From a virus (lineage: Duplodnaviria; Caudoviricetes), in the IMG/VR virus record IMGVR_UViG_3300031993_000019: a stretch of DNA of 64,000 nt. One strand, written 5' to 3'. How positions within the stretch are numbered: the first letter of the stretch is position 1; every line of letters starts with the position of its first letter. A model generated the notes under the pieces. It had not been told where the DNA came from. It searched no databases and worked only from the letters and a program-made list of their open reading frames with translations. This document shows positions 8,501 to 43,037 of this stretch, in pieces. A program made the position numbers and the translations under genes.

Positions 8501-8887
8501 TTTTGGGTCTGGGTACATACTGAATAGAGCGTCAACCTGCTTGTCGGTAAGAACATAAGACAGGAATTTACGCATACCAAACTCGTCGCTTAAATCGGCG
8601 GAAACATTCATGGCTTTAATTTGGTAGCCACAACCATACTTCGGGTCCTCCACAACATCAGCGGCAATCTTGTATTTTGTTCCACCGCGAAGTTCAGGGA
8701 CATTACCCTTAAAGGTAATATATCCTTCCTGATACCATTTGTTCTTCACCCTGTCGTCGACAGAGCCCGAGATAATCTTACCCACATACAGAACAAATAT
8801 TGCGAACGACCCGCCTTCCATTACCGGGGATTTCGGGAAAATTTGCTTATCCAAAAATCCCTCGACAACTAAGTCGGCCTTTAACAC
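5570..8887 (-). CDS. recD2: RecD2-like SF1B helicase interrupted by an intein
   Basis: HhH region, NPYVL...GIGWAKAD, split Walker A ALAG|CGKS, TIHRLL, LDEVSMV, GDPGQL, IFRQA, YAITCAKSQG, LYTAITRG. Confidence 0.92.
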   Translation of the reverse strand: MLKADLVVEGFLDKQIFPKSPVMEGGSFAIFVLYVGKIISGSVDDRVKNKWYQEGYITFKGNVPELRGGTKYKIAADVVEDPKYGCGYQIKAMNVSADLSDEFGMRKFLSYVLTDKQVDALFSMYPDPKEILENHRIDALCKIKGIKRVTAEKILNKYDNSKDNSEAYAVLYDYGLTKYMIDKLVDRYKSAQTLIERVTRNPYVLIDECDGIGWAKADSMALSSGIKKDSDFRVCAYIKYYLKNLAETDGHTWVPLDTIVANAKGLSPTITNEQLKVLFKKLLEDNQLYYDRENRRIGLMRYRALEENIYKELLRLRDARCVRKIQYIDETIKECECSVGYEYTDEQKDAIRKICESNVCLLTALAGCVDRDTEFFNGETWKKICEYQPGDLVLQYNADGSASLTEPLMYIKRPCETLYHFETKYGVNQTISDDHNVVYWTPNGVRKSCTVSDIIKEQQSSTGGFCGRFKTSFFYDGPGIDLTDAQIKVMCAVICDGSFYKKVENNQNAGSYMRCRFHIKKDRKKEELRRIFKEAQIQWREVESSAPGYTDLYIDAPRREKFFTSYWYRCNNHQLKIICDNIMFWDGNINLSQYGVKRKRFSTANRATADFVQFAYSACGYRAKIIEKDRSGKKYFTCGKIYTRKSAEYSVVVTERDMVGICADIRPDHHKTEIQPVQSKDGFKYCFMVESTMLVLRCNDHIFVTGNCGKSSLMYPVTRILRKNDMTFSQCTLSGKASLNLRQLTNEDGKTIHRLLAYDPARERFMYDKDCKLPDDAIILDEVSMVGGELFYSLIQAIKTGAKLIMIGDPGQLESIGLCNLISDLANSQAVSHASLTKIFRQAAMSGIITDSVRVYHQQPILSKGMSGIVVHGELKDFEIDIVDDSDVCANEVISAYKDLCFTKKISPEDVVVVTAKRCAGQLSAVELNKRIQALFDFGDDGITKDYTDGNTKYQICYHVGDRIIVTKNNYTSLNVNGTPEPIYNGNIGTVVSVNKKDGELIIRLPQGDIPLTRSELANVQLGYAITCAKSQGSGFKYVIAVCDPSSVIMLTKEYLYTAITRGKKWCRLIGTWFSVNKCIQTTRVIAKQTWLLGLLAGYDSVQEQ
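6767..7786 (-). mobile_element. 340-aa intein with a LAGLIDADG-like endonuclease region, inserted in the RecD2 Walker A motif
   Basis: Begins CVDRDTEFF, block B TISDDH, ends FVTGN with Cys as the +1 residue; removal restores ALAGCGKS; internal VICDGS and MFWDGN motifs. Confidence 0.9.
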
Positions 8888-8901
8888 ATCAAAACCCTCC
8901 G

Positions 8902-9894
8902 TTAGATTTCAAAATCTTCTTCGTCGTCCAGAGACTTAATAGCAATCAGCTTTTTACGCTGTATTTCGTCGCACCCCATACCAACCCACGGAAGAAACGT
9001 GTTGTATGTGTGATTCGATGGCGTGTAAAGACTGTAATACGGACATTTATTCTTACCATCCTCCGTGACAGCGGGGTTGGTGTTAGAAAACTCGCACCAA
9101 TAGCACAACTGACTGGGGGACGGTTTATAATTGCCGGAAGAAAATCCGTCAATCAGGCTGTCAATTTTCTTCAAACCACGATTAATAAATCCAGAAGTCC
9201 CTCCCCTTTTCATTTCTTCGGCAATGGGGAACTCATAATAACAGTCAATCTCAAGGTCTTTCCCAAACTCATCCTTCGGGAGGATCTCTTTAAGTGCCTG
9301 TACATAGATTACCATCTGCAGCGGAGTGACGCACTTCTTGTCGTCATACGCCTTTGCACTCGTCTTGATGTCATGAATTTCAAGATGGCTTCTGTCGCTT
9401 TTGTGGACAAAAACCCGGTCGATAAATCCATGAAAGAGATACTTCTTATTGTTGCGAGAATACTTATACTCAAACGGAAGCTCGGCCGCATAAAGTTCAA
9501 GATCTGGGTTTTCTTTAATATACCGTTCAAGGCGATAGATTCCATCCTCAAGAAACCTCTGCGCCTTTTGCGCATAGCTCCTACCCGTCTTGTCGACTGT
9601 AAACCACTCCGACTTGTATTTACGCGAAAGAATGTCTGTCCCACAGGGAGTGCCCCCGGCGCCATCAGCTTCCACAAAATATTTCTTAAGGAAGTCATAG
9701 TCAACCGGTTTACCACCGACGATCCAGTTTGTCTGTATCTCAAAAATTTTATGGACCAGAGAACCAAATGCCGTCGCCGCGTTGTCGGTCGAAACAAAGT
9801 TCTTAAGGTCGTACTTTAAATGGAATTTGTAGGGGCACTGATTATATGTGTCGATCTTCGAAAAGCTTAACTTCTCTGCTTTTGTCTCCGCCAT
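8902..9894 (-). CDS. PD-(D/E)xK exonuclease, Cas4/AddB-like, with a probable Fe-S cysteine set
   Basis: LSFSKIDTYNQCPYKF, FGSLVH, GFIDR, HDIKTS, QMVIY, LCYWC...KCPY. Confidence 0.85.
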   Translation of the reverse strand: MAETKAEKLSFSKIDTYNQCPYKFHLKYDLKNFVSTDNAATAFGSLVHKIFEIQTNWIVGGKPVDYDFLKKYFVEADGAGGTPCGTDILSRKYKSEWFTVDKTGRSYAQKAQRFLEDGIYRLERYIKENPDLELYAAELPFEYKYSRNNKKYLFHGFIDRVFVHKSDRSHLEIHDIKTSAKAYDDKKCVTPLQMVIYVQALKEILPKDEFGKDLEIDCYYEFPIAEEMKRGGTSGFINRGLKKIDSLIDGFSSGNYKPSPSQLCYWCEFSNTNPAVTEDGKNKCPYYSLYTPSNHTYNTFLPWVGMGCDEIQRKKLIAIKSLDDEEDFEI

Positions 9895-10443
9895 TCAGAC
9901 CACCTCGTTGTTTTCATCAAACTTGAGGAGCAAATATTTTCTGCTCGCCAAGTAATCAGCGAGATGGACGACCATCTGGAGCGCGGTCACGGGCTTCGGC
10001 AGAACATAACTGCTTCTATTCGACGTGTTCCACTGGCCCATGTGCGACTCAATAAGAGCACATACGGTTTCAGCAACAGCCGGAGGAAGGTCTTTGCGAA
10101 CAGCGTTCGAAGCCAGAAGCGGATGTTCAAACTTCGTGAACATGCCGTGATCGTCTCCGGACTTGCGACTGTCGTGCAAGATCAGGGCGAGAATCGCGCA
10201 GTCTTTTTCGTACTGCGTAAACCCATACTGCTCAAGTTCAAGCAGGTCCTTTGCGATCCGGACGGCGGCCTTTGTGTGCCGATACAGACCGCCCTCTCCA
10301 AGGGCGTACTCCGGATGATATTTTCCGGTACTCGACGCCGGAATCTCATAGAAATATTCTGGAATGTGCAACACGCACATTTCACCAGCCTTACGGATCT
10401 CGGGATCGACGATGTAGTTCAGTTCTTTCTCAAATCTTTTCAT
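9895..10443 (-). CDS. HD-domain phosphohydrolase (YhaM-HD-like)
   Basis: PASSTGKYH, GGLYRHT, LHDSRK, SHMGQW, HLADYLAS. Confidence 0.85.
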   Translation of the reverse strand: MKRFEKELNYIVDPEIRKAGEMCVLHIPEYFYEIPASSTGKYHPEYALGEGGLYRHTKAAVRIAKDLLELEQYGFTQYEKDCAILALILHDSRKSGDDHGMFTKFEHPLLASNAVRKDLPPAVAETVCALIESHMGQWNTSNRSSYVLPKPVTALQMVVHLADYLASRKYLLLKFDENNEVV

Positions 10444-10458
10444 GTTGTCCTCCTATAA

Positions 10459-13400
10459 TTACGCTATATTACACAGCGAGTAATACTTAAGCCAGGTTTC
10501 GGTTTCAGTTGGGCTCTGTACCCACTCACCATCGACCTTTCTAACCTTAGGTTTTTCGATCATTGTCAGCCGAATTGTATCTCCGAACACAAGTGGTGTT
10601 TCCTGATATGCTTTTTTGCTTATCTTTGCAATCACCGACCGTCCTGTCGAAAGTTCAAACAATGTGAGCTTCGGAGAGTATTTTGTGTCAATCTCCGCAA
10701 CAACCCATACTCCACGCTTATCAGGCATAGTAATCGAAATATACCCAAGGTATTCTTTGTCCCACTCAATACGCGAAGTGAGAGGAATATCTTTTGGCTG
10801 AATGATATCCACAATTTCTGTGAGTACAGAATCTGGATCTGTCACTCTAAACTGCTTTTTGGTTTCTGTCGAGTGCTTTTTGATAATCTCTACGATCTTG
10901 TCAGGATATTTCATATTGTCTTTATTATACTGCCTTTTATCGTTAAACTCGTCGTAGCATCTTACAATATCAAGCAGATATCCAATCTTTCCAAACTCGG
11001 AGAAGTAATCAAGCTTAATAAGGATGTCGAGCTGTTTAGAGTTCCCCGGAAACACTCTGATCACATCTACGAATGATGAAAACCTTATGTTTCTCATTTC
11101 ATAAAGCTTCTCGGCGACATCATCATTAAGAAACTTAATCGACGCCACCCCTTTATAAACCGCGTGTTCTTTAGAGTCCGGTACGTATCGCGCACGAGAA
11201 TGCCTAAACTTTGGCGGCAAGATCGAAATATTCTTAACCTTCGCTAATTCTGTTCCCATGCGTATATCGTCGTCGTTGTTTGCGTTGTTCAGATAGGCTG
11301 CGATAAACTCACACGGATAGTAATAACGAAGATAAGCACACGTATATCCGATCATCGAATACCCGGTAGAATGATTGTATCCAAACTGGTAGGAAGCAGA
11401 GTCTTCAATAATCTGAAGGAATGTTTTCGCCTCTTCTTCTGCAACCTCTCTTGGCTTGTCGGACTTCGAACAATAGCCCTCAAGTATGCTTGGAAGGGCA
11501 GCGTCCAAACGGTCTTTTTGCTTTCGCCCAATTGCCCGACGAATGTTGTCCGCCTCGCTGCCGCTTAGACCGCATATTTTCTGAAGGAATGCGATCGTGT
11601 CCTCTTGATAAATCAAGAATCCGTTATTGTCCTTCAGAAGGTCGTCAATAATCTCGGACGGATTATGATTGATTTCGTGATTCAATAATCTGTCTCTATA
11701 TGACGCCCCTGATGGACGCAAGCTCGCATTGACCAACGACATATGGTTGATTTTCGAGGCACCGAACTTCTTAAGCATCTCAAACGCAAACTTGCTCTCA
11801 AACTGAAAAATACCGGCCGGAGAAGTTAACATATCCTTCCATACATTCTCGTCTTCCCAGTTCAGCAAGTGCGACTTCGGATATGGTATTCCGGCAAACG
11901 CGCACGTATCTTTAATAATCTCGACATTCTTCAGGCCCAGCAGATCATACTTGTTTAAGTTGACCTCGTGGCATTCTTCCATGTTAATCTGAAGAATGCG
12001 CTTGCCATCTGCCCAGAACGTACCATAGTTATCAGGAAGAGACACGGGGCTAACAACGATTCCGGCTGGATGCATAGACTGCGACACACAGGTTCCGAGG
12101 AGTCCGTCGAAGTAGTAAAACAGCTCTTTATACTTTTGCTTAGCCGTGTCCGGGTCTTGCTCGTACGCATCTTTAATCGCCGCAACCTCGTCGAGAGGGT
12201 AATTAAGCGCCCTACCGATTTCGTCGATAGTTCCCTTGTCTACCAACGTCCCCATCGCAAGAATGTATGCCGTATAATCTTCGCCAAAGCTTTCGATGAT
12301 ATGATCATAAACAAGATGGCGCTGAGTCGGGCTAATGTCAATATCAATATCACCGAGCTCTTTACGGTCCTCGTTTGCGAACCGCGAGAAGACCGTGTTC
12401 CACACAACCGGATCGACGTCGATAATATCTGTAAGGTACGCAATAGTGCTACCACCACAAGACCCCCGACAATACCCAATAGGAATACCATTGTCCCAGC
12501 ACCACGTCACAAGGTCACTCATGAAGAGCATGAATCCCAGCATACCGATCTTCTTAAATACGCGGAGCTCTTCTCTGGCGTTAATTGCGTACTGAGGGTT
12601 CGCTTTAATAACGCCACGTGCAACCTTGTCTTTATATCTCTCGTTGACGCGTCGTTTTAACTCTGCCTCGTCGTCCTCATAACACTTGGCGTACTTAAAC
12701 GATTTGTCGAGGTCAAAAGACTCAACGCTGTCCGCCATCACATTCGTGTTTTCAATCGCGGACATATAATCGGATTTATCAACCACCCCCTGCATTTCAA
12801 ACATTTCAACAAGTTCGTCATAGCTCTTATAGGAAAGGTCGAATTCATCCTCGCTGGTATATTCTATTTTTTTCGCCTTCAAAAGGATCTTTCTGCACTC
12901 AGACTTATACGGGCTAAGGCTATGCGTGTCTGTTCCGGCGATCAGAGGTTTCCCGTATTTCTTAGACATCTGGACGAGCCACATATTATATTCTTTTTGC
13001 TCTGGGCTGTTTACGTGCGGCTGAATCTCAAGATAATCGTAGTATTGAATGAGAGATTCGTCTCTAAGCTTGTTGAGCGGAGAGGCGAGACACGCGCTGA
13101 TTTTTATTACATTCGACGAAATCGCCTTAAACTCGTCAAACGAAATCCTCGGCTTATAGTACATATGATCGGGCCTAGTAGAAGCATCAACAAGGCGGTT
13201 GATCTCCTTAAACCCCTCATAGTTTCTTGCAATCAGAATAGTATGATAGTTGTCGCGTACTTTATGTGGCTGCGGGTTTTCGTCTGTAGACTGTAATAAT
13301 GCTTTCGTCAAATAGCACTCAATCCCGTGGATATACTTAATACCATTTGCGTCGCAGTACATCTTTTTCTCGATCCAGTTGTACACGTTCCCGTGTTCGG

Positions 13401-13518
13401 AAAAACAAATCGCGGTTTGCCCAAGCTCTTTTGCTTTATCGACATACGCCTTATAATCAGTACAGGAGTCCAAAAGACTTCTGTCGCTATGCAAGTGGTA
13501 TACTACATAGTTGCTCAC
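10459..13518 (-). CDS. dnaE: DNA polymerase III alpha subunit (family C, PHP domain)
   Basis: HLHSDRSLLD, RGSCGGS, FSRF, DIDID, HPAG, KYDLLGL, IYQE, YQFGYNHS. Confidence 0.95.
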   Translation of the reverse strand: MSNYVVYHLHSDRSLLDSCTDYKAYVDKAKELGQTAICFSEHGNVYNWIEKKMYCDANGIKYIHGIECYLTKALLQSTDENPQPHKVRDNYHTILIARNYEGFKEINRLVDASTRPDHMYYKPRISFDEFKAISSNVIKISACLASPLNKLRDESLIQYYDYLEIQPHVNSPEQKEYNMWLVQMSKKYGKPLIAGTDTHSLSPYKSECRKILLKAKKIEYTSEDEFDLSYKSYDELVEMFEMQGVVDKSDYMSAIENTNVMADSVESFDLDKSFKYAKCYEDDEAELKRRVNERYKDKVARGVIKANPQYAINAREELRVFKKIGMLGFMLFMSDLVTWCWDNGIPIGYCRGSCGGSTIAYLTDIIDVDPVVWNTVFSRFANEDRKELGDIDIDISPTQRHLVYDHIIESFGEDYTAYILAMGTLVDKGTIDEIGRALNYPLDEVAAIKDAYEQDPDTAKQKYKELFYYFDGLLGTCVSQSMHPAGIVVSPVSLPDNYGTFWADGKRILQINMEECHEVNLNKYDLLGLKNVEIIKDTCAFAGIPYPKSHLLNWEDENVWKDMLTSPAGIFQFESKFAFEMLKKFGASKINHMSLVNASLRPSGASYRDRLLNHEINHNPSEIIDDLLKDNNGFLIYQEDTIAFLQKICGLSGSEADNIRRAIGRKQKDRLDAALPSILEGYCSKSDKPREVAEEEAKTFLQIIEDSASYQFGYNHSTGYSMIGYTCAYLRYYYPCEFIAAYLNNANNDDDIRMGTELAKVKNISILPPKFRHSRARYVPDSKEHAVYKGVASIKFLNDDVAEKLYEMRNIRFSSFVDVIRVFPGNSKQLDILIKLDYFSEFGKIGYLLDIVRCYDEFNDKRQYNKDNMKYPDKIVEIIKKHSTETKKQFRVTDPDSVLTEIVDIIQPKDIPLTSRIEWDKEYLGYISITMPDKRGVWVVAEIDTKYSPKLTLFELSTGRSVIAKISKKAYQETPLVFGDTIRLTMIEKPKVRKVDGEWVQSPTETETWLKYYSLCNIA

Positions 13519-32099: not shown

Positions 32100-35000
32100 T
32101 TAGTGATTATTTTTTGTCAGAGAAATTTGACTCTTAACGCTGTTCCAGAATGCAGAAGCATCAAAGCCGGAATCTGTATTGAACGTTGCATTAAGCGTTC
32201 CAACGTGCATAGAGTTATCCTCAGACTTCTTTTCGTCTATTCTGTTGAATGATTTTCCGCTTAATTGTGTAATTAAATTAGGAGCAACTTCACCAAGCGA
32301 CCACAAATTCTTTGTAAGATCCGCCGGAAGAATACCAGACTTTGCCGGAAGAGATGTAATGGTGCCTTCTGGAGTAATAATGCCCTCAAGACCGCGTTCG
32401 TTGATAAGGGTGGGACCGCCAGAAAATGAAAGCGCTCCCGAAGCGTTTCTCAACAAACTATAATTAGTCACACCATCTAGTGTTGTCGGGGGAGACAGTT
32501 CCCGGTCTCCATTTTGAAGTCTTATCTCGTGCCATCCGTCTATGCCTTTATAATAACCATATTCGTTGCTTGTGTCTGTATTAACAAAAACATAACCGAC
32601 ATAATTTTCGTTTTCTAAATCATCAAACGTTTCAGCGTGTTGAAACTGATGAACGCCTCCACCTATGTCAACCTTTGATAACAACAACTGATCTGCTTTC
32701 CCTCTTTTTAGGTCAGACGGGACCTGGTCTTGTGAAGATTGAGAATAATACATCATAACGCCGGCGTCTCTTGCGCCCTGCGGATGAGACCACCCCTCAC
32801 CATCTGGTATATAAACCCTAAGCCATCTGTTCTGGTCCTTCAATTCATTAAAATATCTTCTCTTCTCATCATATCCTGAAACATCGTAGTTCTTTCCAAT
32901 TCCCATTTTATTATAATCTGTAAGCTTTGCAGAAGAAGTAGACAATTGGTCTAATTTATCGGAATACATTTGTTTTGCTGTACCATAATAAGGAGACTTG
33001 TTGTTCTGTAAAACACTCGCAACTGAAAGCCCTCCGAGAGCATCTTGGGCTTTATTTATCCAGCTATTTTCATCATCTCTATTAAGGTCTGATAAAATAG
33101 AAGTATAAACTGCCTCCTCGGCATCCGCCTCTTCTTGCGATACGCTTTGCGCATTTTCGCCCAAAGAATTAGTTACGCCTTCCTGGATCTTTTTGGCAAG
33201 CTCTTTCTTATTAAAAGATAAAATGCTTCCAAGTACAGACCCCTCTTTGCCCTCCATGAACTTTTCAATAAGCTTATATATGCTTTCAAGCTGCTCGTTA
33301 TTTTCAATGTTTGCCAAAATGTCTTTTTGCTGATTAAGCATATCAATCTGATATTGAATATCTCGTTGATCTCTCTCTCTTTCAAGCTTTTCAACATTTT
33401 CCTGAGCATCTTTAATAGCCTGCTGGTCAGAAGTATAAACAAAACCAACACCCTCTCTATACACTCTCTTCTTTTCCTTTTGTGCGTTCTCAAGGGCCTG
33501 TTTTGCCTTAATAAGCTCGAGTTCTTTTTCCCTCTGTTTATTAACATCCTCTAAAGACTCTTTTACAGATTCGAGATTGGAAATTTCATTTTGCAGAGCA
33601 TTTTCTTCCGCTTCAACGAGTATTTTTTGAATAACCTCCGCAATCTTAAAATCTCCAGTAAGTTCACCCGCGAGTTTTGCAAATGCGTTGAGCGCGTCCG
33701 TATTATTGAACATAATAGCGGAGGCTCCCAAAAAGTTTGAACTGCCTTGTATGCCGAGCCAGTCTTCTTCGCTTAGACCAAGCGCACCATATTCTTTCGG
33801 ATCTCTGTATTTCTCTATAAACGCTTCCCACGTCTTATCATTAGTCAGTGCCGCCTTAGCAACAAGTCCAATAGCACCCTCTATTGCGTCGCCAGTAAAG
33901 AAATCGATTAAGTTCTTCATGATATTTTCTGTGCCAAAAGAACCATCTTCGCCGTTCAAAAGCCAGCTATAGTTTTCAAGAATGCTATTCATTGTTTTGG
34001 CGCTAATTGTTGAAGAGTGTGAAATCTCGGTTAAAATATCCCCAAGACCACTAAACGACTCCACAAGACCGTCGACCCCGTTGGCAATAGTAGCGTCTGT
34101 TACCCATCCAAGCGACTTTTCCGCTTTTAACGCCTGCTCCGTAGTCATATTCAAGGCGTGCGCAATGCGTTCAATTCCAGCAGCATCAGCCTTATATAAT
34201 AAATCTATACCAGAATCTCCGTATTGTTCGCGCAATTCTGCATATCCACCAGCCTCATCCAACCTACTAATAGCGCCCTGAATACCGCCAGAATATCCGC
34301 CAAATAAACTTTCCGCTCTAGACCTTGCTCTAATTCTGCTCGACAGGGTTTGCGTATTATTTTTAAACAAAGAAGAGTATCTTTCATCGCCACGCAAATA
34401 ATCAATAATATCCTGTCGCGCGGACGCAGTTAATGTACCACCGAGAAAAACATTAGGATTATTCTTAGACCAGTCCTCTGCAACCTGTCTTATAACACGC
34501 TCAAGAGTGGCGTTATTAATCTGTACAGCAGACATTCTAGAAACACCAGATGTAATCGCAGATGCAGCCAAATATGATTTTTGTAACGAATCTTGATACT
34601 TTTCAAGATCAACCTCAATAGACGACAACTTCTGATTAAGCTCATTTAACTTGTCTTCGTCTCTCTCTTTTGCAATTTTAGAAAGTGTTTTTACAAGATC
34701 CTTTTCAAGATTAGAAATCTCAATCCTAGATGCGGCAAACGATTCTTCTGCCTCGCCGACAATCTGTGCCGCGCTCAATCTGGACATTTCTTCTGACGTA
34801 AGAGAAGCCACGTCTCCGGACGGTTTGTTATATTCTTCTCCGAATAATTTCTTATACGAATTTCTTAACGCTGAATTTGACTCAAACGCATTAATAATTG
34901 CCAAATATGCCTCTTGATTTCTTTTCCAGTCAGCAGAAGACCAAGAAGACGATCCAGCATCTACAGAATCCCTCAAGGAAGACACGGACGAAGAAACACC

Positions 35001-38000
35001 TTGTATTGCCTCAAGAGTCTCCTTGTGCTTTGCCACATCCCTAGACATCTCTATTTCGTCCCTGTGTCTTAACCACTTAAATAGTGAAGCGACGGGGTCT
35101 AAAAGAATTGGCCCAAGAGTGGCCCCAAGAGCTGTGCCGATACCGGGGGCTATCATTGTTCCAATTGCAGCGCCTATTCCGGCGCCCGCGGCCCCTGTAG
35201 CTCCGCTTATAACAGAATCTACACCGTTTTCAAATTCAGACGTACCAACAACTTCATCAATCTTATTTCCTATAATTCCACCACCAGCGGCCCCATAAGA
35301 CAGACCGCTCGAAACCATAGACCCAACGGTTATACCGGCTATCTGGCCTCTTGTATACGCAGTATCTTCTCCCTTGTGCTTACCATGAGCATATTTTACT
35401 TTTGTACCCCAGTAACCAGGGACGCTTTCAGAAGAAGACTCTCCGCGAAGTGCGGCTGTATTTCTATTTTCCGCGTTTGTATTATCAATAATGGCCTGTT
35501 TATGTGACGTCAAACGATTATTAATCAAAGTTCTTAAAAGAGGAATGGCAGAAATCAAAGCTGGCACCCATTTATCTGCGAGTTCAACGGTTGATGTCAA
35601 AGCCCAAAGCACACCCTTAATAACAGGACTTTGATCTATCTTTAACACAAGGCCCTCCCAAGCAGCTTGAAGTTCTTGTTTTTGGAACTCAATACTGTCT
35701 TTATATGCCTCATATTTTCTATTCGCCCTACCGGCAGAAGTCTCTTCGTCTTCCAGTGCTTTCTTATAGGTTTGATAAGAGTTAAGCAACGCAACAGTAG
35801 TATTACGTTGTCTCACGCCGCCAAGAGCGACTGCAATTGCATTCTGCTCTACCGTAGTGAGAGTTGTCCATTTTTCTGCAATATCATCAAGCACATCTGC
35901 AAAATCGCGCATCTCCATCTTTGACGTTCTGATCTGAATGCCGAGGGCACCTAAAACGCGTTCAACATCATTGATGTTTTCCGCATCCCCCTCTTCGGCT
36001 CCCTCAAGAACTGCAAAGGAACCAGCTTTAACATTACCATAACGAGAAAGCATTGTCTTTAATGCATTACCAACAGTACCGGCGTCTTGCTGGGTGGTGT
36101 CGATAATAGCCGTAATGGCAGCAGCCGTCTCGTCAAGGCTCATACCGGCGTTGTTCGCAACAGATGCAACACGAGTCAGGGCCGTTGCAATATCTCCGGC
36201 CGTTGTCGCGTATTTTGCATCAAGCGTTGTCAGCTTATCAACGATAGACATTGATTCAGTGGCAGAAAGATTAAAGCCTTTCATTGCCGCGGTCAACGAT
36301 TTAACAGCCGCGCCCTGATCCATAAAACCAAGCTTCGCAAGTTTAGTGCTTGCTTCTATAAGATTTTCAGTTTCTTGGATGTTGTATCCTTGACGCAGCC
36401 ATTCTGCCCCAACCTGTGAAATAGCGGCAGTCGTGACACCAAGCTCTTTTGCCAAGCCGTTATAAGCCTTCATCATGGAATTCGCTTCCTCTGCGTTTTT
36501 ACCAGTGATAATACGAAGATTCGTCATAGAAGCGTTAAGCTGTTCTGTAATTTGAACAACCTTTTTCATATCGCCAAAAAATTTAAGAATGAGCTTCGTT
36601 GTTACACCACCACGGAAAAGCATATTAAATGCAGTAGCCGGACCAGACGAAAGATCTTTTAACCACCACGCCCCAGAAAACATCTTGTTATCCTTTTGCT
36701 TTTCCTGTGCATCCCTTAAAATTTGTTCCTGAATACGCTTATCTCTATCTTCGCTATTTTGCGCCATTTTCTTTGCCATTTCTTGCGAAACGCCCTGGTC
36801 TACTTTTGTATAAGACCCATCTTGCATATAAAGAGCTCCGCCTTCTCCCTCGAGTTTTTCAAGCTCTTCTTCTGCTTTAAGATAAGCGTAAGAATCCTGT
36901 TCCCCGCGCATTGCAAGCCTTCCAAGAGTAGACTTTAACCGACTTCTCTTGTCTAACGCTTTCGCAAACGCAGAAAGCTGAGACCCTCCTTTTGTGCTAA
37001 AAATATCTATCGCTCTGCCGAGATCGGTACCAGGAGCAATAGACGCCCCCATAATTTCGCTTATGTCTGCAGAAGATATAAGAGACTGCCGTTGATCTTG
37101 TGAATACACAACTCCGGCAGCGGCGTCTGCGAGCGCACGTTCCACATTTTCATTAGAAAGAAGTCTAAACCGATACGCAGAAACCTTATCATTTGTCGGA
37201 TTGAATCTTGTAATTGTTCCGTTTTCAGAAATCTCTGCCGTCTTTAATATATTTGCAAAGTCTGTCGGCTTACCATTTTCATCGACAAGACCATATTTTT
37301 GTGCCGCGCCTAAGAAGTTTTCTCCCTGCAACTCTTTTTGAATTTGAGAAAGAGCGTATTTTCCGTAAGAAAGCTGCATTAATTGAGAAAAATCATCTCT
37401 TCCGGATTTATTTTTAGAGTCTCCGACGATCATTTGATTGGTTTTAGGATCGTAATAAACCTGATCTATAGTTCCCGCAAAATATCTATCAGCCAAAGCG
37501 GTTTTACCAAGTTGACCAACAGAGAATTCACGTGCAGCAACCTGATATCCAAGACTCTTACTTATTGCAGATTGAGCCAGCGTAGAATAAATTGACGCCT
37601 CACCAAAAGACCCGATATTCTCTGGACTATATCCAAACTTTTTAAGCCTATCTTCTGTTTGAGCCCATATCTTCTTGCCCTCTTCTGTATTTTGAAATCT
37701 TAAAAGATATTTCGACAAAACGTCTTTATTCAAAACATTATTACCGTTATTATCTTTTACAAACAAATCGTCCATGGAGACATCAAGCGCTTCTCCAAGA
37801 ATCTCCATTTCTTTATGTTGTAATGTCCCAAAAATAGAAGAAAGTGCGCTACTTCTTGCTCTTTCAAAATTATTAATATCGGATACAGTATAACCATGTT
37901 TGGCTATGTCTTCAACGGAAAACTTATCCCCGCTATACGCATCCAATAACTCCAAAAACTCGGAGCCTCCGCTGTGATAAGAAGAACCTGATAATATACT

Positions 38001-41000
38001 TCCAAGTTTAGAAGCGGTAATCGCATCTGGAAGAGCGATTCCATTTTCGTCAACATAATAATGTCCAGGATTTTCTCTCAGATCAGTAAATATAGGAGAA
38101 AAACCAGAAACAAATCTACCACCCTGATTGCCAGCCGCAGCCAAAACGGCAGACGCATAACTGTCTGGATTTCTCATTAATATTTCCCAATCTCTATCTG
38201 AAAAATTCCCTCCCTGTGTTGCTGCAATTTGTTCTGCCGCACTAACACCATACCTCTTGCCGTCTACCGTATACTCTGCCTCTCCATTCGCGATAGCTTT
38301 TTTCATCGCCTCAATGCGCTTTTGTATTGGTGTAGGAGCTGTTTGTTTTGTAGCACCATGTTCTCTTAACCATCTACCAATAGAATAATCGCTTGTAGAC
38401 ATGTCTCCTTCAAGCCTATTCGAAGAGACCAGGGCTTGGTGTAAAAATGTTCCCCTATTGCCTTTAGAAACACTCTTATCAATATAATCAGCAGCATACA
38501 TCAGCATTTCAAAAGGTATAGTGCCAATCGTATTTCTTGCACTTTGGCTCGCTTCGTCTGTGACCAGAAAATCATTCACGATCTGTTGTGCGGTCCTTGT
38601 ATCGTTTGCGCCAAATTCAGAAGATTTATACCGATCCGCATAACGCATGAGTTCTCTCTTAAAATCATTTCCTCCAGCCGCGCTCGCCTGCTGAGCCATT
38701 TGAATCAAAGCTTTATTCCCAACCGTATCTTTAAAAACCCCGATGTTTTTAAGTTCGCCAAAGTATTCACGAAGAGACATAGGATTGTTTTTATCCCACG
38801 CCTTTGCGGTAATATTTCGCAATTGAGAAATGGCTTCGGTTTGTTTTTGTGCGAATTCTTCCGGAGACAATTGACCATTTTCCTTATTAAGCTTGTTTAT
38901 GATATGCTTATATGAAATGGCGTCTTGCTCTACTGACTCAAACAGATATCTAACCATCTGTCCGATCGCAGAACTAGCGCCAACTCCTGTCATTTCAGAC
39001 ATAGACTTAGAATCTAAAAATCTTCTCGCCTCAGTAGCCTGAGAAGAAATAAGACCGATCTCTCCGCGGTTTGCTGCGCCAGCAAAAGACGCAGTTTCTA
39101 CGGTGGCGTGCGTAGGAAGCACGAGGTCTTCTCGCCAAATCTCCGCATCTTCTCCGCGAATTTCACGTACTCTTGCTATTGCCTCTGAAACCCTCTTGTG
39201 ATTTTCTTGTATCTTTCTAGCCGTTTTAATAAACGAACCAACACTCTTATCGTCCATTCCATTCATTCCAAGAAACGCAGAGACAAGAGCAAAGTGGTCT
39301 CGGTCGTAGTCCGTTCTATTGGAATCCGCAGCACCATATCCAATCTTCGCAGCCTCAGATCCGGTCATTGTGCTATCGACAAAAGCTCTTAAAAATCTAA
39401 CGTCCTGCCCTTGAATCGAAGGAAATCTTACGTCTTGAAGAAGAACGCCTTTTTCATTCACGCCGGAACCAAGAGTGACCGCCTTTAAAATGTCTTCTTT
39501 TATTTTTTTATTTGTCAGTCGTTTAGCTGGGCCCTTTCCAAAAACATCCCTATAAACAGCAGACAAATTAGCCCTGTCGTTACCTATAAGATCGCCCATC
39601 GCCTCTGGACTTAAAAACACAGCATCTTTAGCCCCAACAACATCTTGCCCCATTGCAATAGCAGTTGCTTCAAAAAATTTACCGCCGGGCATACGGGTGT
39701 GATAAGCCTGATCTATAATAGAAGAATCTTTATCGAAGGCATATCTTCTATATTCGGACATAAATCTGTTTACAGAATCTTGCGTTTTATTAAATTGTCT
39801 TTGGATCGCCTCTTGGTCATCCTTGGACTCTTCGACAACGCGATTATAGTCCGCCAAAGATCTTATAACAGAGTTCAAAGATTCATCAAAAGAAGAAAGC
39901 ATATATCCCAAAGAACCGCCTGCTTCTCCGCCAAGCCTATCAAATAGCTCCATTGCTTCTGTTTCTGGAGAAATATTAGGTACAATAATTTTTGAAGAAG
40001 AAAACTTGTTTCCGTACGAATCGTCGAACGAATATCCAAACGGGCCAAGATCCAAAAGTCCATAAGACGAACCACCCATAGAATCATAAAACTTTTTTAA
40101 ATTGCTTTCGTTATAAGATTCTTCTGTAACATATGGCCCGCGATAATCGAATCTGGAATCTCCGACTACACCAAAAACATCAAACGCTGGGACGCCTTTG
40201 TCGCCACCAGAAAAAGAAAGACCAAACGCGTTCTGATACGCATTTACCTTTTTCATAACAGCATCACGACGACCTGTATTGTAAATGTTTTCATAGTGTT
40301 GGACAAAATCTTCCGCATCCGGACCAGCCGCTCTCTTAATGGCCTCTATTTCTCTACGCCCATATTTAACACCGTTCAACCAACGATAATCATATGCCGC
40401 ATTAAGCCCTTCTTGAATCGTAAAGTTTTCACTAGGAAAATATTGCCTAATATTACCGAGGATCTTCTTCTGATCTTCCTTGTCAAGATCGATATTTTGC
40501 CCCAAAAACCTTGCAACAATCTCATTGTCTTTAATATCAAACATGTCTGCATATTTTGTTCCGGCAAAAATTTGACCTATTTGACGCTTTACGTCTTCCT
40601 TGTCTGACTTTGGATCTAAATATATATCTGTTAATCTACTAATTAAAAGACCGCCAAGATCGTTTGCGCTCATTTGTTCAATTCCGCGAAGAACGTCAAC
40701 ACCGCTGAACATATCGTTAAAAAATTTTTCTGGTAAATAAGAAGATTCGCTTCGATAGCCAGTATATCTACCAAGCGTTTTAGGGTTTGACCATCTGACT
40801 CTTTCGGAGAAATTTGCCTCAAAACCAGATTCTGTTTTAAAAACATTTGGAGAAAGAATATCCCAGGGTTCTATACCCATCAAATACCCTATAACAGCTT
40901 TATGTTTCTCCTCGTCAGTAGAATTTGCTTTAATTTTTCCAGAAGAAACGAGTTTTCTTTGTGCTCTATTATACTCTTCAAAGCCAAATGCCTTATGCCT

Positions 41001-43037
41001 CTGACGAGAAATATCAAACTCTCCCGATATTCCTTGTCTCATAATAGACGCGTTGTCGTGTAATCCGGGAACAACACCAACGGCAGCCGCAAGCTCCGGG
41101 TTTTTACTGGCCCACTCATTCCACTTATCCAAAAACTGTTTTTCGGTGATATATTGTATCCTATACAGCCGTTCTGTGGCATCGTCATAATCGTATTTGT
41201 TAGCCTTCCCATACTGCGTCTTAAAGATAGGAGCGTTTCTGTTTTTTCTTGCAAGCACGGCAGCGTTTGTAAGATCTCCAAAGTTTGTCCCCTGAGAAAC
41301 ATGTCGCGATGCATCCCATCCAATAGCAGCAACAGCATTTTCAAGATTCGCTGCAAGCTGAATAAATCCACCAGCTCTCGCAGCATTCGAGCCATATTGT
41401 GGTGACAAAGGAAGCGAGGACAAATCTTTCAACATCTTTTTCGCAGTCATGGAAGAAAGAATTTGGCTATAAAGATCGTTTCCCTTACTTAAATTAGCGA
41501 TCGCCTTAGCCTCATCATTGGTTCCTCGCATCTGCGCCCTGTACGCACCAATAAGATCATAAACACCTTTTACAACATCAGATTCCTGACGCGCATTAGA
41601 CCCTCCGATTTCCCTCATAATGGCGTCGATCATAGGCCTAATAACCATACGATTAGAAGAGTTTTCTCTTGATGCTCTTCTCGACATACTTTCATTAGAC
41701 GGCTCGTCGTATTTATATGCGCCTGCATAATCATACGGCATACCCCTCAAAGAATTCTTCTCTGCCATAGAAAGCGCAGATTTCAACCTTCTTTCATAAG
41801 CAGAACTGCTTTCTCCGCTTTTCTGTCTAACCTGAAGCAAGACACGACCGACTTCTTCGAGCATATATTCTGCAGTTGTAGAATAACGCGGAGCCCGAAC
41901 CTCGAATCCGCCAGATCTATTACTTGTTTCATTTGGCAAAACTATGATATTATTTGCCCCTCTTCCACCATTTCTTCTCATAGAAAGGCCGTTTACATCG
42001 TCAAGAGAACCATATCTAAACTTAGGGACCTTCGACCAATCAATCTTGTTAGACTTGACGTTCTTTTCTGGAAACGCCAAAATGTATTCGTCTCTTGAAT
42101 CACGTCCCAATACGAGCTTTCTTCCGGCTCTTCTCGCTTCGTTGCTAATATCCTCTAAATAATTTTGAGTGAAAGAAGAAGCATTTTCTTTTTTTACGCC
42201 ACCAGAATAAACCCTATTTATAACAGAGTTCGCAGAGTATTTAGAAAAATTTCTTTGAAATTTATCAAAGCTATTTTTATTTAAAACCCGTATTCCTTTA
42301 TTTTCAACCCCAGAAACGCCGGTTTCAAACGCCTTACGAACCGACATAACTCTCTGCTTCAACTTCTTGTTATCAAGCTCATATTTCTTACTAATTTTAT
42401 CAAGCTCTTCCCTAACTTTTAAATGATTTTGCAATGCATCATATGCCAGATCTTGATTTTGTTCGATATTTTTGATAAAACTATCTATTGCGCTTACCGG
42501 TTGATTAGAAAGCGTTCTTGCTATTTTAGAAATAGACACACTCTCTTTCAAGAGCGCTCTCTTTTTCCCTTCAAGAATCTTTCTGCCAAACGTGGAACCG
42601 GCAGACAAACGTTCGATCCTTTCGTTTGTTAAATCTGAAAGATCCTTGACTGTTTCTTCAATATAATTTCTATAGAGATCATTAACCGTTCTCTGTAATG
42701 CACCCTGAATTTTTGATATTTCATTATAATAATTTTTATCTTCATTCTTAGACCACTGAGATTTTTTATAATTGACATCAGCCTTTGCTTGTCTCACTAA
42801 ATTTGCGACCCTATCATCTATGTTCTGGATCGCCCCATTGGTAATAATATGAATAATCTGTCCTATATTTTTCTTGATATTTTCAGGGCTTTGCTTCTTT
42901 CTTTCTCCCTTTGGTGCATTAGGATTCGAATAATATAATTTAGAAATTAAATCATTAATTTGATTAAAAGATCCAAAAACATTTTCTCCATAATTATCAA
43001 TATTACCAAAATTTTGAGTTAAAAAATTATTGTCCAT
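32100..43037 (-). CDS. Tape measure protein (TP901-type core) with N-terminal RNA-polymerase-like and PD-(D/E)xK nuclease domains
   Basis: TMP core LNASMTNLRIITG...EWLRQG...AGTVGNALKTMLSR at about 35650-36560, Gly-rich hydrophobic segment, C-terminal coiled coil and ASG...INERGLEGI; enzyme motifs detailed in findings. Confidence 0.9.
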   Translation of the reverse strand: MDNNFLTQNFGNIDNYGENVFGSFNQINDLISKLYYSNPNAPKGERKKQSPENIKKNIGQIIHIITNGAIQNIDDRVANLVRQAKADVNYKKSQWSKNEDKNYYNEISKIQGALQRTVNDLYRNYIEETVKDLSDLTNERIERLSAGSTFGRKILEGKKRALLKESVSISKIARTLSNQPVSAIDSFIKNIEQNQDLAYDALQNHLKVREELDKISKKYELDNKKLKQRVMSVRKAFETGVSGVENKGIRVLNKNSFDKFQRNFSKYSANSVINRVYSGGVKKENASSFTQNYLEDISNEARRAGRKLVLGRDSRDEYILAFPEKNVKSNKIDWSKVPKFRYGSLDDVNGLSMRRNGGRGANNIIVLPNETSNRSGGFEVRAPRYSTTAEYMLEEVGRVLLQVRQKSGESSSAYERRLKSALSMAEKNSLRGMPYDYAGAYKYDEPSNESMSRRASRENSSNRMVIRPMIDAIMREIGGSNARQESDVVKGVYDLIGAYRAQMRGTNDEAKAIANLSKGNDLYSQILSSMTAKKMLKDLSSLPLSPQYGSNAARAGGFIQLAANLENAVAAIGWDASRHVSQGTNFGDLTNAAVLARKNRNAPIFKTQYGKANKYDYDDATERLYRIQYITEKQFLDKWNEWASKNPELAAAVGVVPGLHDNASIMRQGISGEFDISRQRHKAFGFEEYNRAQRKLVSSGKIKANSTDEEKHKAVIGYLMGIEPWDILSPNVFKTESGFEANFSERVRWSNPKTLGRYTGYRSESSYLPEKFFNDMFSGVDVLRGIEQMSANDLGGLLISRLTDIYLDPKSDKEDVKRQIGQIFAGTKYADMFDIKDNEIVARFLGQNIDLDKEDQKKILGNIRQYFPSENFTIQEGLNAAYDYRWLNGVKYGRREIEAIKRAAGPDAEDFVQHYENIYNTGRRDAVMKKVNAYQNAFGLSFSGGDKGVPAFDVFGVVGDSRFDYRGPYVTEESYNESNLKKFYDSMGGSSYGLLDLGPFGYSFDDSYGNKFSSSKIIVPNISPETEAMELFDRLGGEAGGSLGYMLSSFDESLNSVIRSLADYNRVVEESKDDQEAIQRQFNKTQDSVNRFMSEYRRYAFDKDSSIIDQAYHTRMPGGKFFEATAIAMGQDVVGAKDAVFLSPEAMGDLIGNDRANLSAVYRDVFGKGPAKRLTNKKIKEDILKAVTLGSGVNEKGVLLQDVRFPSIQGQDVRFLRAFVDSTMTGSEAAKIGYGAADSNRTDYDRDHFALVSAFLGMNGMDDKSVGSFIKTARKIQENHKRVSEAIARVREIRGEDAEIWREDLVLPTHATVETASFAGAANRGEIGLISSQATEARRFLDSKSMSEMTGVGASSAIGQMVRYLFESVEQDAISYKHIINKLNKENGQLSPEEFAQKQTEAISQLRNITAKAWDKNNPMSLREYFGELKNIGVFKDTVGNKALIQMAQQASAAGGNDFKRELMRYADRYKSSEFGANDTRTAQQIVNDFLVTDEASQSARNTIGTIPFEMLMYAADYIDKSVSKGNRGTFLHQALVSSNRLEGDMSTSDYSIGRWLREHGATKQTAPTPIQKRIEAMKKAIANGEAEYTVDGKRYGVSAAEQIAATQGGNFSDRDWEILMRNPDSYASAVLAAAGNQGGRFVSGFSPIFTDLRENPGHYYVDENGIALPDAITASKLGSILSGSSYHSGGSEFLELLDAYSGDKFSVEDIAKHGYTVSDINNFERARSSALSSIFGTLQHKEMEILGEALDVSMDDLFVKDNNGNNVLNKDVLSKYLLRFQNTEEGKKIWAQTEDRLKKFGYSPENIGSFGEASIYSTLAQSAISKSLGYQVAAREFSVGQLGKTALADRYFAGTIDQVYYDPKTNQMIVGDSKNKSGRDDFSQLMQLSYGKYALSQIQKELQGENFLGAAQKYGLVDENGKPTDFANILKTAEISENGTITRFNPTNDKVSAYRFRLLSNENVERALADAAAGVVYSQDQRQSLISSADISEIMGASIAPGTDLGRAIDIFSTKGGSQLSAFAKALDKRSRLKSTLGRLAMRGEQDSYAYLKAEEELEKLEGEGGALYMQDGSYTKVDQGVSQEMAKKMAQNSEDRDKRIQEQILRDAQEKQKDNKMFSGAWWLKDLSSGPATAFNMLFRGGVTTKLILKFFGDMKKVVQITEQLNASMTNLRIITGKNAEEANSMMKAYNGLAKELGVTTAAISQVGAEWLRQGYNIQETENLIEASTKLAKLGFMDQGAAVKSLTAAMKGFNLSATESMSIVDKLTTLDAKYATTAGDIATALTRVASVANNAGMSLDETAAAITAIIDTTQQDAGTVGNALKTMLSRYGNVKAGSFAVLEGAEEGDAENINDVERVLGALGIQIRTSKMEMRDFADVLDDIAEKWTTLTTVEQNAIAVALGGVRQRNTTVALLNSYQTYKKALEDEETSAGRANRKYEAYKDSIEFQKQELQAAWEGLVLKIDQSPVIKGVLWALTSTVELADKWVPALISAIPLLRTLINNRLTSHKQAIIDNTNAENRNTAALRGESSSESVPGYWGTKVKYAHGKHKGEDTAYTRGQIAGITVGSMVSSGLSYGAAGGGIIGNKIDEVVGTSEFENGVDSVISGATGAAGAGIGAAIGTMIAPGIGTALGATLGPILLDPVASLFKWLRHRDEIEMSRDVAKHKETLEAIQGVSSSVSSLRDSVDAGSSSWSSADWKRNQEAYLAIINAFESNSALRNSYKKLFGEEYNKPSGDVASLTSEEMSRLSAAQIVGEAEESFAASRIEISNLEKDLVKTLSKIAKERDEDKLNELNQKLSSIEVDLEKYQDSLQKSYLAASAITSGVSRMSAVQINNATLERVIRQVAEDWSKNNPNVFLGGTLTASARQDIIDYLRGDERYSSLFKNNTQTLSSRIRARSRAESLFGGYSGGIQGAISRLDEAGGYAELREQYGDSGIDLLYKADAAGIERIAHALNMTTEQALKAEKSLGWVTDATIANGVDGLVESFSGLGDILTEISHSSTISAKTMNSILENYSWLLNGEDGSFGTENIMKNLIDFFTGDAIEGAIGLVAKAALTNDKTWEAFIEKYRDPKEYGALGLSEEDWLGIQGSSNFLGASAIMFNNTDALNAFAKLAGELTGDFKIAEVIQKILVEAEENALQNEISNLESVKESLEDVNKQREKELELIKAKQALENAQKEKKRVYREGVGFVYTSDQQAIKDAQENVEKLERERDQRDIQYQIDMLNQQKDILANIENNEQLESIYKLIEKFMEGKEGSVLGSILSFNKKELAKKIQEGVTNSLGENAQSVSQEEADAEEAVYTSILSDLNRDDENSWINKAQDALGGLSVASVLQNNKSPYYGTAKQMYSDKLDQLSTSSAKLTDYNKMGIGKNYDVSGYDEKRRYFNELKDQNRWLRVYIPDGEGWSHPQGARDAGVMMYYSQSSQDQVPSDLKRGKADQLLLSKVDIGGGVHQFQHAETFDDLENENYVGYVFVNTDTSNEYGYYKGIDGWHEIRLQNGDRELSPPTTLDGVTNYSLLRNASGALSFSGGPTLINERGLEGIITPEGTITSLPAKSGILPADLTKNLWSLGEVAPNLITQLSGKSFNRIDEKKSEDNSMHVGTLNATFNTDSGFDASAFWNSVKSQISLTKNNH
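37200..38030 (-). other. PD-(D/E)xK nuclease domain within the tape measure protein (limits approximate)
   Basis: FGTLQHKEME, AREF, FAGTID (D1858), IVGDSK (D1873/K1875), QLMQLSYG. Confidence 0.75.
38400..41300 (-). other. Two-barrel RNA polymerase-like domain within the tape measure protein (limits approximate)
   Basis: LHDNASIM (D661), KTLGRYTGYR (K753), VRFPSI (R1204), DYDRD (D1243-D1247; nt 39297-39311), EIGLISS (about aa 1327), EQDAISYKH. Confidence 0.7.

Follow-up and report, generated by a model that had tools for sequence, protein, structure and literature searches.

A predicted RecB-type nuclease domain in the N-terminal extension of a giant phage tape measure protein

What is the role of a nuclease motif series that is located inside the tape measure protein of a phage tail? 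This question is raised by the IMG/VR virus record IMGVR_UViG_3300031993_000019 (Duplodnaviria; Caudoviricetes), of which a stretch of 64,000 nucleotides, here called the window, was analysed. According to the list of open reading frames (ORFs) and their translation, the minus strand of the window contains at 32100..43037 the ORF of a giant tape measure protein, which comprises 3645 residues and no cysteine. An initial annotation, made from the DNA sequence alone, had placed a PD-(D/E)xK nuclease at 37200-38030, between an RNA polymerase (RNAP)-like domain and the tape core. This interval corresponds to residues 1670-1946 of the minus-strand ORF; a plus-strand reading of the same interval is interrupted by stops throughout and was rejected. 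As detailed below, residues ~1714-1950 are predicted to be a divergent RecB/AddB-type PD-(D/E)xK nuclease domain with intact catalytic residues. We lean towards the reading that this nuclease is catalytically competent, is delivered with the tape, and acts as an end-dependent DNase on the leading end of the phage genome.

Motif series and predicted fold of the nuclease domain

The conserved nuclease region spans residues 1656-1950 (37188..38072, minus strand), as delimited by the alignments A1 and A3, a structural model, and an hhalign comparison with the PDDEXK_1 family. The core PD-(D/E)xK fold within this region comprises residues ~1714-1950 (37188-37898, minus strand). Five motifs follow one another on this strand. 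The motif I helix FGTLQHKEME (residues 1736-1745; 37803..37832, minus) contains G1737, H1741, and E1745. Next come the first core strand AREFSVG (residues 1835-1841; 37515..37535, minus) with E1837, the second core strand AGTIDQV (residues 1854-1860; 37458..37478, minus) with the putative catalytic D1858, and the third core strand IVGDSKNKSG (residues 1870-1879; 37401..37430, minus), whose D1873-x-K1875 represents the (D/E)xK motif. All residues named so far are invariant. The series is completed by the helix FSQLMQLSYGK (residues 1883-1893; 37359..37391, minus), in which Q1885 and Q1888 are invariant and Y1891 is variable. The motif strings quoted in the initial annotation were all recovered in the minus-strand translation, and its residue numbers D1858 and K1875 are exact. 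Order and spacing of the motifs, i.e. a G-x-x-x-H helix, E, G-x-I-D, D-x-K, and a Q/Y helix, are the same as in the RecB-family PD-(D/E)xK nucleases (PF12705), which include AddB, AdnA, Dna2, Cas4, and the C-terminal domain of RecB. The RecB motif is D-x-K and not E-x-K; the tape domain likewise contains D-x-K.

A stand-alone Cas4-like nuclease (P0020) is encoded at 8902..9894 on the minus strand. It is separate from the tape measure protein, matches PF12705 (PDDEXK_1) with an E-value of 4e-23, and carries a four-Cys signature. The spacing of its motif series FGSLVHK / AELPFE / GFIDR / HDIKTS / LQMVIY nearly equals that of the tape measure domain. In a BLASTP comparison of the nuclease region with this protein, motif I alone was matched (E 0.007), and an hhalign comparison of a four-sequence domain profile with the single stand-alone sequence was insignificant. 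The relation was seen only by profile-profile comparison with a 40-sequence alignment of the P0020 family (A2). The counterpart was the domain alignment A3, which consists of five sequences representing five clades. Hhalign aligned A3 with A2 over 161 columns with a score of 40.6, an E-value of 8.4e-5, and a probability of 60%. For 60 column-shuffled controls, the mean score was 14.1 (standard deviation 2.4, maximum 23.3), and a reversed control reached 17.7; the real score is thus approximately 11 standard deviations above the shuffles. The invariant columns of A2 are G44, H48, E52, E138, G156, I158, D159, D175, K177, Q193, and Y197, together with C20, C264, C267, and C284. In the hhalign register, G1737, H1741, E1745, E1837, G1855, D1858, D1873, K1875, and Y1891 fall on G44, H48, E52, E138, G156, D159, D175, K177, and Y197, respectively, and the Gln of the last motif is offset by one position (QxxY versus QxxxY). 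The parallel motif series that the initial annotation had noticed in the stand-alone nuclease is thus borne out, and at the level of sequence profiles the resemblance is beyond chance. The gene of the stand-alone nuclease lies in a minus-strand block at 5570-13518, flanked on one side by a gene for a RecD2-like helicase (5570-8887) and on the other by an HD-domain gene and then a DnaE-type polymerase gene (9895-13518). This block looks like a helicase-nuclease recombination/replication module.

An AlphaFold (AF2) model of the domain (m36d08052ebdd) had a mean pLDDT of 62, with 139 residues at 70-90 and core blocks at 70-88. The modelled order of elements is alpha-beta-beta-beta-alpha-beta and consists of the long motif I helix, the strands with E, D, and DxK, the Q/Y helix, and a further strand; the same core is characteristic of the RecB family, which also provided the best structural matches. 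When the model was compared to 48,161 PDB representatives, the top match and all matches with at least 139 aligned residues were either nuclease domains of the RecB family or an exonuclease deposited as putative, with a Z below 8 in every case. VIA structural matches to Dna2, AddB, AdnA, and ACE1 cover the model residues ~45-311. A Foldseek search of the model against the PDB gave no match at E <= 0.001, the best E being at least 0.18. In Pfam, a weak match to DUF4494 (PF14902, E 0.017-0.025) covers residues 1819-1906 (37320-37583, minus strand), i.e. the strands and the helix with E, D, DxK, and Q/Y. PF12705 itself was not matched at E-values up to 10 by any of the five clade representatives, and its curated threshold was not reached.

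The three lines of evidence, namely profile-profile alignment, predicted structure, and structural comparison, are individually moderate, and jointly they leave little room for chance. They agree on the RecB/Cas4-like PD-(D/E)xK assignment that the initial annotation had made. Two outcomes had been named there as fatal to this assignment: the lack of a predicted restriction-endonuclease-like fold, and catalytic residues that vary among close homologues. Neither was observed, because profile search and structure prediction yielded a PD-(D/E)xK core, and none of the 20 homologues departs from the D and DxK residues.

Conservation, architecture, and composition of the tape measure protein

A word-indexed search detected 18 homologous proteins of 2772-4289 residues in ENA, Logan, and NCBI assemblies, all of which contain PF10145. 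When 1.84 billion cluster representatives were searched exhaustively with a HMMER profile, three were detected, and all of them are giant tape measure proteins; among them, P0021 (3857 residues) represents a fourth clade. A profile search with the alignment added one further IMG/VR contig and gave no match in 185,579 species genomes. A single-sequence search of viral contigs for related loci found nothing, and neither the nuclease region nor the N-terminal 2100 residues had a blastn or tblastn match in 50,697 phage records. Because every match was a giant tape measure protein, the domain is, as far as these searches reach, known only from within this protein family. The lineage is SPbeta-like and uncultured and is represented by large metagenome contigs, several of which are ~134-155 kb long. 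By their tube protein, phages of Enterocloster and Thomasclavelia are its closest isolates (28-37% identity).

Among the four clades, the sequence identity of the domain is 33-38%. In the four-clade alignment A4, G1737, H1741, E1745, E1837, D1858, D1873, K1875, Q1885, and Q1888 are invariant. In a motif scan, 20 out of 20 proteins had all five nuclease motifs in an unchanged order, each protein containing the string FGT[LI]QH; position 1891 is the sole variable motif position. It is therefore plausible to assume that the catalytic chemistry has been retained, since all four clades, despite this divergence, have kept H, E, D, D, and K unchanged.

Some members of one clade have a tape measure gene that stops 3' of the core after ~2772-2823 codons. 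At L001:10001-23450, a separate ORF of 1486 codons begins ~670 bases after the shortened gene; in sister contigs, a single ORF of 4088-4289 codons is present. The split in L001 may be due to a frameshift or an inserted element, or may be genuine.

The sole domain of the 3645-residue ORF that was recognised by Pfam is PF10145 (residues 2193-2407, E 5.1e-31). PHROG tape measure families were matched as well, phrog_4211 being the best (E 2.7e-60). The tape measure core comprises residues 2155-2464 (35646..36575, minus strand) and was aligned by hhalign to residues 354-644 of SPbeta YomI (probability 99.5%, E 2.5e-22). A regex scan of the translation located a Gly/Ala-rich hydrophobic segment at residues 2608-2646 (35100..35216, minus strand), for which membrane insertion is a candidate role by analogy to known tape measure proteins. 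The window protein thus has the core, the tail-module position, and the hydrophobic Gly-rich segment of a PF10145-type tape measure protein. A wall hydrolase was not detected by Pfam. In YomI, ~350 residues precede the core; in the window protein, there are ~2150. The nuclease domain is located N-terminal of the core in a single uninterrupted ORF, and the same architecture is found in independent assemblies. The domain is a fixed component of a ~2150-residue N-terminal extension that the phage lineage has added before the tape core. Between residues 1400 and 2200, a search for internal starts detected one Shine-Dalgarno-like site only, and none at the boundary of the tape core. This site is a GGAGG positioned 10 nucleotides 5' of an in-frame TTG at residue 1695 (37953-37977, minus strand), just ahead of the nuclease core. 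It is probably due to chance.

The position assigned by the initial annotation holds in that the nuclease precedes the core within one ORF; for the module further upstream, which it terms "RNAP-like", the support consists of short invariant motifs only. These are the strings RFPSIQGQD, R-T-D-x-D-R-D-H, and P-K-x-L-G-x-x-T-G-x-R-S, which are invariant in 20 out of 20 proteins and coincide with a peak of conservation. The second one reads RTDYDRDH in the window protein (39294..39317, minus strand), where D1243, D1245, and D1247 form a candidate metal-binding DxDxD motif. A short DxDxD motif alone is insufficient to place the module in the two-barrel RNAP family. The AF2 model of residues 530-1400 had a pLDDT of 43.6 and of less than 50 in the DxDxD region, so that fold searches with this model were uninformative. 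With single-sequence templates, which limit sensitivity, hhalign detected no relation of the module to YonO (E 0.42) or to residues 1-1200 of the tape measure protein gp96 of Thermus phage P23-45 (E 0.12). In the 20 proteins of the motif scan, the nuclease motifs and the DxDxD module always occur together. A word-based homologue search with residues 540-1400 returned only P0002 (96% identical) and is uninformative on the existence of a DxDxD module without the nuclease.

The tape measure protein contains no cysteine, and the same is true for each full-length homologue (3643-4289 residues). The cysteine content of the other window proteins is 0.75-3.25%. SPbeta YomI (2285 residues; L007:8438-15295) and P23-45 gp96 (5002 residues; L008:8287-23295) also have none, and the cytoplasmic SPbeta polymerase YonO has 14. 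Cysteine-free tape measure proteins are thus found in three unrelated phage groups, i.e. the window lineage, SPbeta, and P23-45. Truncated homologues (~2780 residues) contain one or two cysteines; that of P0010 is located seven residues from the C-terminus. AddB, Dna2, Cas4, and P0020 possess a four-Cys cluster. This iron-sulfur signature, with one Cys in the N-terminal and three in the C-terminal part, is absent from the tape measure domain, which thus lacks this hallmark of the Cas4/AddB/Dna2 subgroup. The pattern suggests that storage in and expulsion from the tail favour a cysteine-free protein, and that the nuclease is a cluster-free version for this reason. Likewise, since the N-terminal additions follow the compositional rule of the tape, they are likely to share its fate, that is, storage in the tail lumen and expulsion.

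Probable delivery and possible substrates

From what is known of siphophage tails and of RecB-family domains, we infer the activity, the delivery, the substrate, and the polarity of the nuclease domain as follows. At infection, the tape measure protein would be expelled from the tail tube with its tip end, the C-terminus, first. Because the protein leaves the tube in this direction, N-terminal cargo should exit last, beside the DNA end and immediately ahead of the DNA. It is thus probable that a DNA-cutting enzyme enters the cell together with the phage genome. In the cytoplasm and in the presence of Mg2+, the domain would then be an end-dependent DNase at the site of entry. Dependence on ends is established for the RecB-family domains of Cas4, AddB, and Dna2 and for lambda Exo. 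Since RecB-family domains that lack a helicase act on free ends, and near the pore the phage genome would provide the only such end, we favour its resection on entry; the domain would most likely act on the leading end of the genome of the phage itself. Degradation of the 5' strand would generate a 3' single-stranded tail, which would be a poor entry point for enzymes of the AddAB/RecBCD type. The tail may also serve for the annealing of terminal repeats or as a template for a virion polymerase.

Several points weigh against this reading. Neither the nuclease region nor the five clade representatives matched a nuclease family in Pfam or PHROGs at E-values up to 1-10, and sequence profile searches of the PDB, carried out with the domain and with a full-length alignment, found nothing relevant. 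The structural model is only moderately confident; the hairpin joining the first two core strands has a pLDDT below 50. The last motif is QxxY and not the canonical QxxxY, and Y1891 is replaced by Ile in the P0021 clade; in this one detail, the series departs from the canonical one that the initial annotation had recognised. Furthermore, a folded domain of ~230 residues, present in several copies, fits poorly into the lumen of a tail tube and would have to pass in an unfolded or extended state. Finally, a nuclease packed beside the genome end would be a hazard to the phage itself.

Alternatively, an active and delivered nuclease may be directed against host nucleic acid, such as the chromosome, plasmids, prophages, or defence DNA or RNA, and may serve early shut-off or counter-defence before phage genes are expressed. 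The evidence on fold and conservation is the same for this explanation as for resection of the phage genome, and large injected multidomain "polyvalent" proteins with anti-host effector domains have been described in phages (PMC5512222; PMC7824862). However, the nearest structural relatives (AddB, AdnA, Dna2, the Cas4 family, and RecB) are end-dependent, and an intact circular chromosome has no ends. Moreover, if the tape remains in the envelope as a conduit for DNA, the nuclease would be tethered at the pore, where the passing DNA is the phage's own. An immunity or inhibitor gene is not evident beside the tape measure gene. Hence, we regard a host target as unlikely.

It is improbable that the fold and the metal site have been kept mainly for binding, i.e. 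that the domain guides the genome end in the virion or during ejection with little or no cleavage. Such a function would suit the location of the domain, as the N-terminus of tape measure proteins is at the head-proximal end of the tail, beside the genome end; this is established for lambda and SPP1 and would have to apply here by analogy. For one virus, TTV1, a structural protein (TP1) that descends from a Cas4 nuclease is also on record (PMC4625639), and the degenerate last motif likewise fits a binding module. However, that described case of exaptation has lost its catalytic residues, whereas H, E, D, D, and K are retained here in all four clades.

A function in the producing cell is very improbable. 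According to this explanation, a late tape precursor degrades host DNA or processes intermediates of replication or packaging, and the N-terminal part is perhaps cleaved off before or during tail assembly. It is true that the presence of residues 1-2150 in the virion is something we infer only. Proteolytic processing of the tape measure protein is known from several phages, and a tail whose length is set by all 3645 residues would be far longer than that of SPbeta with its 2285-residue YomI. On the other hand, the stand-alone Cas4-like nuclease in the replication module is already available for such work, and no convincing internal start or split between cargo and tape was found in 20 homologues. 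In addition, the N-terminal part is free of cysteine along its whole length, exactly like the tape, and shares this feature with gp96, whose N-terminal enzyme is present in virions. A chance resemblance of the motif series in a region with another fold, for example a helical tape spacer, is largely refuted and hardly tenable, given the distance of the hhalign score from the shuffles, the coincidence of invariant catalytic columns with matching spacing, the canonical order of predicted secondary structure, and long structural matches that comprise only members of one nuclease family and an exonuclease deposited as putative.

If the nuclease resects the entering phage end as we favour, a more far-reaching scheme can be formulated, which is quite unlikely at present: The tape measure protein would be a self-contained machine for the first minutes of infection, in which the pore-tethered nuclease strips the 5' strand and the DxDxD module, provided that it is a two-barrel RNAP, transcribes the exposed strand as the DNA enters. 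This would allow pre-early expression without double-stranded promoters or host enzymes, and the resected end would be shielded from AddAB.

Relation to known systems and biological meaning

Compared to RecB-family nucleases, the tape domain is distinguished by its context: it has no helicase partner in the chain, it is part of a virion structural protein, and no other context was found. It also differs in being unmatched by the Pfam model and in having QxxY in place of QxxxY.

The known cargo of tape measure proteins is commonly a peptidoglycan hydrolase. This statement of the initial annotation proved correct for SPbeta YomI, which contains SLT and Peptidase_M23 domains; T5 Pb2 and the tape measure protein of mycobacteriophage TM4 are further cases. 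YomI shares with the window protein a homologous tape core and the absence of cysteine. Moreover, the gene order is the same, with a gene for a tyrosine recombinase and a small gene upstream, and the YomU tube protein family is shared by related loci. However, the SLT and M23 enzymes of YomI follow the core on its C-terminal side and are directed at the wall, whereas the 2150 residues added to the window protein are N-terminal and contain a predicted nucleic acid enzyme. The tyrosine recombinase gene of the window (PF00589, PF13495; 43831-44850, minus strand) lies upstream of the tape measure gene by two genes and thus within the tail module, a placement that is also found in L001-L004 and in SPbeta (yomM).

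A further parallel is gp96 of Thermus phage P23-45, a tape measure protein in which an N-terminal virion RNA polymerase has been shown by experiment to be active (bioRxiv 10.1101/2022.12.01.518664). Like the window protein, gp96 is giant and cysteine-free; its N-terminal nucleic acid enzyme is delivered at infection, as is proposed for the nuclease. Its description (bioRxiv 10.1101/2022.12.01.518664) mentions no nuclease, and its residues 1-1200 have no detected sequence relation to the window protein. In contrast to gp96, which possesses a metallopeptidase domain, the window protein contains none that Pfam could find. With the polyvalent proteins (Iyer et al. 2017, PMC5512222), the window protein would share the concept of a very large multi-enzyme polypeptide that is delivered with the invading DNA and acts before gene expression. 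That paper does not mention tape measure proteins, and the processing metallopeptidase and anti-restriction modules that polyvalent proteins typically carry were not detected in the window protein by Pfam.

Already known are thus the fold and the chemistry of the nuclease superfamily, enzymes as tape cargo, namely wall hydrolases and the P23-45 RNA polymerase, and polyvalent injected proteins (PMC5512222). The literature searched, whose coverage falls short of all journals, contained no account of a tape measure protein with a PD-(D/E)xK nuclease. A conserved and catalytically intact nuclease at this place would add a third enzyme class to those pushed through a siphophage tail ahead of the DNA. 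It would also raise the question of how the leading end of the genome fares during the first seconds of infection, under the threat of AddAB/RecBCD and restriction enzymes. Furthermore, the domain would be a natural RecB-type nuclease rebuilt without an iron-sulfur cluster or cysteine, presumably for storage and translocation in an extended state, which is of relevance for protein translocation and for the engineering of tail-delivered cargo. The interest would be greater if the upstream module were a polymerase working together with the nuclease. As the lineage is uncultured, the finding tells what to look for once a member has been isolated.

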